A stretch of 64,000 nt of DNA from Escherichia coli (GTDB lineage Bacteria > Pseudomonadota > Gammaproteobacteria > Enterobacterales > Enterobacteriaceae), in assembly GCF_003018255.1 (NCBI RefSeq), contig NZ_CP027440.1; one strand, written 5' to 3'. Made by a program: the position numbers and the translations under genes. The notes under the pieces are model-generated. The model did not search any database and had not been told where the DNA came from. It was given only the letters and a program-made list of their open reading frames with translations. The stretch's first letter is position 1, and every line of letters starts with the position of its first letter. Shown here piece by piece: positions 21,678 through 23,463 of the stretch.

Positions 21678-21828
21678 CGTCCATTTCTCTTGAGATAACA
21701 TTTTAATTGCTACGGATTATGGCTGAATCGGTGAAGCAGATTTGCCTTATAGCGCACATTATCACGGGAAAGAACGTGCCGAAATATCTTAAACAGGCGA
21801 AAATTAACGCATTGTTGAAGAAGAAAGA

Positions 21829-21857
21829 CAAAAAAGCCCCACCAGAATGGCGGGGCA
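21829..21857 (-). terminator. Intrinsic terminator after ibpB
   Basis: GC stem (GCCCCACC/GGCGGGGC) with an adjacent A/T run. Confidence 0.5.
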
Positions 21858-21871
21858 AAGAGAATAGCTAG

Positions 21872-22300
21872 TTAGCTATTTAACGCGGGACGTTCGCTGA
21901 TAGCGATACGCTGCGCTGCGATGGGTTCAGGCTCATTACGAATTAAATCAATATGCAGTAAACCGTTTACGAAGGTTGCACCAGAGACTTCCATATTTTC
22001 AGCCAGCGTAAAGCTCAGGCTAAATGGCTGATTCATAAGCCCTTGATGCAGCCATTTTTTCTCTTCTTTTGGCTGCTCCGGCGTGCCTTTTACGCTCAGG
22101 CGCGTACCTTCCAGTTGAATCTCTAAATCTTCCTGACGAAAACCTGCCAGCGCAAGGGTAATGCGGTAGTGGTTATCGTCGCTTTTCTCAATGTTGTACG
22201 GCGGGAAGCTCTGGCTTTCACCGGCGTTTTGCAGTGCGTTGGCCAGTTTGTCAAAACCGATCCATTGACGCATCAGTGGGGATAAATCGAAGTTACGCAT
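21872..22300 (-). CDS. ibpB: Small heat shock protein IbpB, 142 aa
   Basis: ORF 21872..22396; start at internal ATG ([16 protein letters not shown]...); alpha-crystallin domain. Confidence 0.9.
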
Positions 22301-22411
22301 AGTCATTTCTCCTTCTAAGAAGCGAGTAAGTACCTGCAAATCCGAAGATTCGCATATGCTCCCTGACGGCGAGCATGGAGATGTCAGGCCGCGCAAGGCG
22401 GCCTTAGGGAA

Positions 22412-22825
22412 TTAGTTGATTTCGATACGGCGCGGTTTTTTCGCTTCCGGAATCACGCGTTCGAGATCGATATACAGCAAACCATTTACCAGGTTAGCAC
22501 CACGAACATGAATGTTCTCAGCTAACTGGAATTTGCGTTCAAAGTTGCGTTCAGCGATGCCCTGGTACAGATAGGTGCGCTCTTTTTGTTCGTCGGCGTG
22601 AGCACCTTTCACCACCAGCAGATTATCCTGGGCGGTAATTTCCAGTTCGCTCTCAGCAAAACCAGCCACAGCGATAGCAATGCGGTAATGGTTTTCGTCT
22701 ACCAGTTCAACGTTATACGGAGGGTAGCCGCCATTACTCTGGCTCTGGTTGTTTTCTAAGTGGTTAAACAAACGGTCAAATCCAATAGCAGAACGGTAAA
22801 GCGGGGATAAATCAAAGTTACGCAT
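22412..22825 (-). CDS. ibpA: Small heat shock protein IbpA, 137 aa
   Basis: ORF 22412..22831; start at [16 protein letters not shown]... Confidence 0.95.
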
Positions 22826-22917
22826 AATCAATAGCTCCTGAAATCAGCGAGAATCTAAGACCTTCCACAATGGACAGGTCAGGTAGCCAGAACCCCCATC
22901 AGGCGCGTCCTCATCGG
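22826..22917 (-). promoter_or_regulatory. ibpA 5' UTR (ROSE-like RNA thermometer region)
   Basis: About 90-nt leader between the sigma32 promoter and the ibpA start, containing the SD AGGAG; thermometer function is from established knowledge of ibpA. Confidence 0.5.
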
Positions 22918-22921
22918 CTAC

Positions 22922-22956
22922 GATGTAAAAATGGGTCTGGAAATGAACTTTTCAAG
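22922..22956 (-). promoter_or_regulatory. sigma32 heat-shock promoter of ibpAB (CTTGAAA-N13-CCCATTTTT)
   Basis: Minus strand reads GGCTTGAAAAGTTCATTTCCAGACCCATTTTTAC; matches the sigma32 consensus TTGAAA / CCCCATNT. Confidence 0.8.
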
Positions 22957-23130
22957 CCTTATCAGCGGACTTTTTTTTGCAGTTTATGGTCTATTGCATA
23001 GACTGAGGGGGCAGCACGAAACGTTAAAGTGCGATAGCCGCCACAGTGCGACGTTATGATGATGTTATTTTCAGCAAGGGATCGCTATAACTCATCAGGC
23101 CAACACCCACGATCAACAGATGAATTTATT

Positions 23131-23463
23131 ATGATAAGAAATGTGTTGTTAGCGTTCATGATATGCAGCGGAATGACATTACTCGGAGGATGCTCCAGCG
23201 TGATGTCCCATACCGGAGGGAAAGAAGGAACATATCCCGGCACCCGCGCCAGCGCCACCATGATTGGCGACGATGAAACCAACTGGGGTACTAAGTCGTT
23301 GGCGATTCTCGATATGCCGTTTACCGCTGTGATGGACACGCTTTTACTGCCGTGGGATGTGTTCCGCAAAGACAGCTCGGTGCGCTCGCGCGTTGAAAAA
23401 AGCGAAGCCAACGCGCAAGCCACCAATGCGGTTATTCCACCCGCCAGAATGCCTGATAACTGA
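23131..23463 (+). CDS. yidQ: Lipoprotein YidQ, 110 aa
   Basis: ORF 23056..23463; start at MIRNVLLAFMICSGMTLLGGCSS (lipobox). Confidence 0.8.
   Translation: MIRNVLLAFMICSGMTLLGGCSSVMSHTGGKEGTYPGTRASATMIGDDETNWGTKSLAILDMPFTAVMDTLLLPWDVFRKDSSVRSRVEKSEANAQATNAVIPPARMPDN

Follow-up and report, generated by a model that had tools for sequence, protein, structure and literature searches.

The ibpA 5′ untranslated region (UTR) in Escherichia coli is, according to the literature, among the best-studied members of the ROSE-like RNA thermometers, the defining feature of which is the motif U(U/C)GCU. It is described as having three stem-loops, the third of which masks the Shine–Dalgarno (SD) sequence and melts with heat. 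A reporter fusion driven by an arabinose promoter was induced 4-fold between 25 and 42 °C, and deletion of the bulged G in a published K-12 mutant abolished thermosensing. The ibpAB operon has also been reported to be under sigma-32 control and to be processed into monocistronic transcripts, and an RNA thermometer has been reported for ibpB as well. Furthermore, oligomeric IbpA binds the 5′ UTRs of both ibpA and ibpB and represses translation through them, as reported from cells and also from a purified translation system. Aggregates relieve this repression even when no heat is applied, and leakiness at 37 °C has been described for the thermometer.

In this study, we analysed the control region of ibpAB in a stretch of 64,000 nucleotides of E. 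coli DNA, referred to as the window, to which all coordinates below apply. In gene, position, three stem-loops, CUCGCU sequence, bulged G and SD, the ibpA leader of the window is the same as the K-12 ibpA thermometer (RF01832; Waldminghaus et al. 2009), and 95 of the 97 bases compared, which comprise the 96-nt leader and the A of the ATG, are identical, with two substitutions, at 22894 and 22855. The founding ROSE element, ROSE1 of Bradyrhizobium japonicum hspA (RF00435), is alike in that the 5′ UTR in which it lies belongs to a small heat-shock gene, in consisting of several hairpins and in having U(U/C)GCU with a bulged G opposite the SD in the 3′-proximal hairpin; however, it has four hairpins in contrast to the three of the ibpA leader, the sequence similarity is limited to the motif, and the Rfam search of the window region gave no RF00435 match at E ≤ 1. 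The fourU thermometer of Salmonella agsA is likewise an SD-masking hairpin before a small heat-shock gene, but its SD pairs with four uridines, whereas that of the ibpA leader pairs with CUC-G-CU.

The ibpA promoter and thermometer are already known, being textbook examples that are included in Rfam, annotated in RefSeq and experimentally characterised. The ibpA element itself is hence of little discovery value, and the useful outcomes of the analysis are minor and methodological. We estimate the probability to be about 93% that this region controls the ibpAB small heat-shock operon of E. coli and is composed of a sigma-32 promoter followed by a ROSE-type thermometer leader.

The ibpAB locus and its heat-shock promoter

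The locus in the window is the yidE-ibpB-ibpA/yidQ region of the E. coli chromosome, where yidE, ibpB and ibpA are on the minus strand and yidQ is divergent from ibpA on the plus strand. Of the 5426 complete E. coli genomes, 5417 contain a 1.2-kb ibpAB stretch at an identity of at least 95%, the best match reaching 99.9%. The RefSeq annotation at the locus gives ibpA, ibpB and, over the ibpA leader, a sequence feature named "ROSE". The coding sequences and the end of the operon are as follows.

22412–22825, minus strand: ibpA coding sequence, 137 amino acids plus stop, with the ATG at 22825–22823
21872–22300, minus strand: ibpB coding sequence, 142 amino acids plus stop
21830–21856, minus strand: intrinsic terminator of the operon, a 9-bp GC stem followed by TTTTTT, from a terminator scan

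The listing of longest open reading frames places the ibpA start at TTG 22831 (MIMRNF...), two codons 5′ of ATG 22825. We rejected this TTG as an artefact of the longest-ORF rule, as both RefSeq and the conserved N-terminus MRNFDLSPL give 22825. Weak Rfam matches to anti-hemB, Hrs1 and GcvB at 21828–21900 were also rejected, being terminator look-alikes that scored below the gathering scores.

The preliminary description of this DNA had placed near-consensus sigma-32 elements upstream of ibpA, and these are indeed present there, unique in the window and conserved.

22950–22956, minus strand: sigma-32 −35 element CTTGAAA, which reads CTTGAAAA when extended to 22949
22927–22935, minus strand: sigma-32 −10 element CCCATTTTT, with the consensus register aCCCATTT at 22936–22929

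When compared with the consensus boxes quoted from the literature (CTTGAA(A) for −35 and CCCCATNT for −10, at a spacing range of 11–15 bp), the −35 element matched at 7 of 7 positions, or at 8 of 8 as CTTGAAAA, and the −10 element matched at 6 of the 7 specified positions, with a spacer of 13 nt in that register. A search of the 64-kb window for CTTGAAA-N13-CCCCATNT that tolerated up to one mismatch gave a single occurrence, where 0.02 were expected. For the analysis of conservation, we used an alignment of 59 distinct Enterobacterales leaders that were fetched via a coding-sequence anchor; in it, conservation at fixed spacing was at least 90% for TTGAAA and, within CCCATTT, for the C, A and TT. 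A sigma-70 scan of 21700–23300 returned zero sites. The 13-bp spacer of the preliminary description is correct in the register aCCCATTT (CCCCATNT) but not as it was written, 14 bases separating CTTGAAA and CCCAT. Similarly, its distance of about 95 nt from ibpA agrees with the presumed transcription start at 22918–22924 but not with the hexamers, the −10 element ending about 102 nt before the ATG.

Directly upstream of the −35 element, there is an A-tract, AAAAAAAAG (22972–22980, minus strand), and several related genera have an A-rich sequence followed by GTC at this position. The A-tract may be an UP-element-like feature.

Structure and conservation of the ibpA leader

The position of the transcription start can be approached from published numbers. 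A review gives the length of the ROSE-like element as 96 nt, which implies +1 at 22921 and coincides with the beginning of stem-loop 1, and the published numbering of "G71" implies +1 at 22918 instead. From the near-consensus promoter, sigma-32 RNA polymerase, for which the dependence is that reported in the literature, would start at about 22921, and the resulting leader of about 96 nt is predicted to form three stem-loops, with the following layout.

22826–22921, minus strand: ibpA 5′ UTR, with an inferred start at about 22921 (range, 22918–22924)
22883–22921, minus strand: stem-loop 1, with an outer stem GUAGCC/GGCUAC and an inner stem in which GCC...GGG is invariant and G22904 is bulged
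22859–22880, minus strand: stem-loop 2, GACCU-G-UCC / GGAAGGUC, with bulged G22875, from the structure line of Rfam ROSE_2
22829–22855, minus strand: stem-loop 3, the predicted thermosensor, with a core at 22851–22835 in which CUC-G-CUG pairs with CAGGAG
22846–22850, minus strand: ROSE anti-SD motif UCGCU, with bulged G22848
22835–22839, minus strand: ibpA SD AGGAG, of which GAG is invariant

In the third stem-loop, CUC-G-CU at 22851–22846 would pair imperfectly with AGGAG at 22839–22835 and exclude ribosomes in the cold. Heating would then open the weak anti-SD:SD helix and allow translation, in line with the temperature response in the K-12 literature, and oligomeric IbpA, as also described in the literature, would bind the same leader and repress translation until it is titrated by protein aggregates.

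The family membership of the leader was evaluated by an Rfam search, in which ROSE_2 (RF01832) matched at 22891–22819 with 96.6 bits, compared with a gathering score of 65 (E = 2.7e-22), over model positions 1–73 of 73. The match ends within the first ibpA codons, which puts it in the 5′ UTR directly before an alpha-crystallin-type small heat-shock gene. In the ROSE_2 structure line, A22839–G22835 are paired with U22846, C22847, C22849, U22850 and C22851, with G22848 being bulged. ROSE-like elements are expected to have two to four hairpins with the SD in the 3′-proximal one, and the leader has three helices in this arrangement; they are also expected to have U(U/C)GCU opposite the SD, with imperfect pairing and a bulged G, and this was found to be invariant in 59 species. 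A simple pattern match also detected U(U/C)GCU followed by an SD upstream of most of 120 small heat-shock protein (sHsp) genes fetched from alpha- and gamma-proteobacteria. Thus, the full-length ROSE_2 match, the RefSeq ROSE annotation and the conservation all support the earlier assignment of the leader as a ROSE-type thermometer with the SD AGGAG. The U-rich segments that had been suggested to pair with the SD were not substantiated: the anti-SD is the ROSE motif CUC-G-CU (22851–22846) with bulged G22848, and a U-rich partner is characteristic of the fourU type.

In the alignment of 59 sequences, 85.0% of the cells were paired according to the three-hairpin model, compared with 37–54% when the 3′ partners were slid, and 17 pairs were changed on both sides. 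The inner stem of stem-loop 1 was 91.7% paired, with double changes in 6 pairs, and stem-loop 2 was 92.8% paired, with double changes in 3 pairs, whereas the outer stem of stem-loop 1 was only 57% paired. The core of the thermosensor was 99.4% paired and the 2-bp basal helix of ROSE_2 only 61%, and the G, C and U of UCGCU were invariant. Because the core is essentially invariant, it provides no covariation evidence either way. RNAalifold, when applied to the same alignment, independently recovered both the inner stem of stem-loop 1 and, including its bulged G, the anti-SD:SD helix; stem-loop 2 was not returned by it, probably owing to gap-rich columns, but is supported by the explicit pair count. 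Taken together, the cross-species alignment supports the three stem-loops predicted in the ibpA leader.

The temperature dependence of folding was examined with ViennaRNA at 20–50 °C for the leader in full, its 3′ hairpin in isolation and the spacer, and then for the window, K-12 and single-substitution leaders. The preliminary description had proposed a comparison of the folds at 30 and 42 °C as a check, with an SD left unpaired at low temperature counting against the thermometer. In the minimum-energy fold of the full leader at 20–45 °C, CGC at 22849–22847 paired with GCG at 22823–22821, covering the G of the AUG, and UCAG paired with UUGA, an alternative fold that leaves the GAG of the SD unpaired at these temperatures, and the predicted probability of ROSE pairing went up with temperature. 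By that criterion, the open GAG in the cold would refute the thermometer, but the validated K-12 leader gave an identical alternative fold and the same inverse temperature trend. Because the failure is equal with the experimentally established K-12 thermometer, energy folding is non-diagnostic for the ibpA leader and, by extension, temperature-dependent energy folding cannot confirm or refute ROSE-class thermometers. A published Vienna-based study also found that the melting of ibpA was not significantly different from that of non-thermometers or ordinary mRNAs, and non-canonical pairs, which the ViennaRNA energy model leaves out, are known in ROSE hairpins. The ibpA leader was not more stable overall than shuffled sequence (z = −0.63). 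When G22848 was deleted in silico, the hairpin was predicted to be roughly twice as stable at 37 °C (−8.4 kcal/mol, compared with −4.6 kcal/mol before), in agreement with the published mutant.

It could be argued from the energy model that the alternative fold is the true low-temperature structure and would mask the start-codon region, not the SD, given that at 20–45 °C it is the minimum-energy structure of the window leader as well as of the K-12 leader and gains an extra 5-bp helix in the allele with G22855. For K-12, however, it is better by only 1–1.6 kcal/mol in a model that ignores the non-canonical ROSE pairs, both the covariance model and RNAalifold favour the anti-SD:SD helix, and the columns of UCGCU and AGGAG are jointly invariant across genera, whereas the region of the UUGA partner varies. 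We consider such a low-temperature structure to be very improbable.

Another explanation is that the leader serves chiefly as an IbpA-binding platform for aggregation sensing, with melting being minor and "thermometer" describing only part of the function. It is in keeping with the reported self-repression of IbpA via the 5′ UTRs, relief by aggregates without heat and leakiness at 37 °C, with the strong conservation of stem-loops 1 and 2, although these do not touch the SD, and with the unremarkable computed melting of the leader. On the other hand, the 4-fold induction from 25 to 42 °C was obtained under an arabinose promoter and thermosensing is lost without the bulged G, and IbpA binding and temperature melting are mutually compatible mechanisms. 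The platform as the chief function is possible but rather doubtful, and the sigma-32 promoter followed by a ROSE-type thermometer leader remains the reading that we prefer.

The ibpA-ibpB spacer

The spacer between ibpA and ibpB is 111 nt long and has four predicted hairpins, with a stability greater than that of shuffles (z = −2.91).

22403–22387, or 22404–22386 with a closing A-U pair, minus strand: GC-rich hairpin GGCCGC-CTTGC-GCGGCC (GGCCGCCTTGCGCGGCC), 8 nt 3′ of the ibpA stop
22335–22376, minus strand: two further hairpins, at 22376–22356 (invariant GCC..GGG, bulged G22370) and at 22354–22335
22301–22334, minus strand: ibpB leader hairpin, in which CUC-G-CUUC (UCGCU at 22325–22321, bulged G22323) pairs with GAAGGAG (SD at 22313–22309)

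The spacer would act as a second structured leader, at the end of which a comparable hairpin covers the SD of ibpB. The core of the ibpB leader hairpin was 100% paired in 39 species, and the hairpin gave zero Rfam family matches at E ≤ 1. As judged from its predicted pairing, this hairpin fits the ibpB thermometer reported in the literature. The spacer hairpin at 22376–22356 (GCUC-G-CC GUCA GGGAGC) and the inner stem of ibpA stem-loop 1 (22911–22889) have in common an invariant GCC-N4-GGG after a bulged G. There are hints that the ibpB leader descended from a duplicated ibpA leader, a point on which the pairwise alignment is not clear; such an origin of the upstream spacer hairpins was not demonstrated, the pairwise similarity being clear only in the thermosensor and the start codon.

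A sigma-54 promoter for ibpB is mentioned in the literature. When as many as 3 mismatches to the sigma-54 pattern TGGCAC-N5-TTGCA were allowed, the spacer had no match, and the overall count was 176 compared with 223 by chance. The only nearby match of the sigma-54-like GG-N10-GC type, TGGTAAATGGTTTGCT with 3 mismatches (22491–22476, minus strand, within ibpA), was rejected, as such matches are no commoner than chance.

With respect to the GC-rich hairpin after the ibpA stop, the preliminary description had suggested that it may attenuate read-through into ibpB. As a sequence feature, the hairpin was confirmed to be present at 22403–22387 and conserved; it has a stem of 6–7 bp and a loop of 5 nt, and it was 94.2% paired in 39 species, with double changes in 4 of 7 pairs. 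Because of this extent of pairing with compensatory changes, its structure is considered to be under selection. The hairpin is like an intrinsic terminator in its GC-rich stem of 6–7 bp, its 5-nt loop and its place after a stop codon, but unlike one in having neither a U-tract nor a mapped 3′ end, the true terminator of the operon being at 21856–21830. The tail after the stem, UGACAUCUCC / TGACATCTCC, is devoid of a U-tract, and the terminator scan does not flag the hairpin. In 44 related loci, ibpA is directly followed by a second sHsp gene; 40 of these loci have a hairpin of this kind, with a T-run in 0 of the 40. The loci without a downstream ibpB mostly had a hairpin with a T-run at the same place.

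Published RNA 3′ ends were also compared with the position of the hairpin. In supplementary files 1 and 3 of Adams et al. 2021, the Term-seq data include abundant 3′ ends at MG1655 positions 3867477 and 3866898 on the minus strand, which were converted to 22880 and 22301 in the window with an offset of 3,844,597. In these tables, which cover three non-stress conditions of MG1655, no 3′ end is listed near the hairpin (3866984), and 3867477 and 3866898 are the only ones listed. As the abundant 3′ end at 22301 is 86 nt beyond the hairpin, transcripts run past it.

Taking these results together, it is unlikely that the spacer hairpin at 22404–22386 is a transcriptional attenuator that halts some polymerases before ibpB: the U-tract is absent, with a T-run in none of the 40 relatives, the scan leaves the hairpin unflagged, and the non-stress Term-seq 3′ ends are not at the hairpin, in spite of the presence of a stable and structurally conserved GC stem-loop directly after the ibpA stop, the reported 3- to 10-fold greater abundance of IbpA than of IbpB and the hairpin with a T-run at the same position in most loci without a downstream ibpB. 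A second explanation is that the hairpin may keep 3′-to-5′ exonucleases off the 3′ end of monocistronic ibpA mRNA that has been processed, so that the ibpA message would exceed that of ibpB. The compensatory changes at a hairpin that has no terminator features and the excess of IbpA over IbpB in cells are consistent with this protective role, although the published non-stress Term-seq data have no 3′ end at the hairpin; we hold it tentatively, as somewhat short of an even chance, although we regard it as the likeliest single role of the hairpin. More generally, the GC hairpin would let transcription proceed into ibpB, and a role in the stability or processing of the bicistronic RNA seems most likely when set against that of a terminator. 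The spacer hairpin may hence be regarded as an element selected for structure without being a terminator.

In five Erwiniaceae loci (L014, L019, L051, L075 and L079, from Pantoea, Mixta and Tatumella), a canonical terminator is located 12–32 nt after the ibpA stop, and in all of these except L014, the terminator has GCCGC...GCGGC as the core of its stem and a T-run thereafter, the core being similar to GGCCGC...GCGGCC of the E. coli spacer hairpin. The idea that the E. coli hairpin is a relic of an ancestral ibpA terminator is speculation and was set aside: because the loss of ibpB in Erwiniaceae is secondary, they cannot polarise the change between terminator and hairpin.

Leader 3′ ends, bulged guanines and alleles

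The 3′ end at 22880 is 3 nt beyond stem-loop 1, at −55 from the ATG, with 52,389 reads and a flag for a significant Rho termination region, and that at 22301 is the last base before the ibpB AUG, with 76,140 reads. The main text of Adams et al. 2021 makes no mention of ibpA. The public 3′-end data point to putative stable leader fragments.

Every conserved helix of the ibpA leader and of the spacer contains one G that bulges from the 5′ strand, at 22904, 22875, 22848, 22370 and 22323. Within Enterobacterales, those at 22904, 22848, 22370 and 22323 are invariant, and that at 22875 is at least 90% conserved. The literature that we found discusses none of these except the G opposite the SD.

It may be speculated that the ibpAB leaders carry control beyond the promoter and the thermometer, in which the bulged Gs would serve in recognition by the IbpA oligomer, transcripts with a closed thermometer would be shortened, by Rho or by exonuclease trimming, to short RNAs ending at 22880 and 22301, and the spacer hairpin would be a stability element of the processed ibpA mRNA. 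We regard this extended scheme as unlikely.

The window differs from K-12 at 3 of about 720 positions, 22894, 22855 and 22395, all of which are non-coding, and the ibpA coding sequence is identical. The G for U at 22894 changes a G.U pair of stem-loop 1 to G.G, and the G for C at 22855 changes the basal C-G of stem-loop 3 to G.G, by which the 2-bp basal helix of this stem-loop is broken in the window allele; T22395 is within the loop of the spacer hairpin. With G22855, the energy model gives the ROSE fold a probability of 0.09 at 37 °C, as opposed to about 0.31 without this substitution. E. coli lineages accordingly differ in leader alleles at paired positions. Nissle 1917 and the type strain ATCC 11775 are among the 1105 of 5417 E. 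coli genomes in which a 57-mer with G22855 was found, and the complete leader of the window was found in at most 15 of the 5417, compared with 4232 for the K-12 leader.
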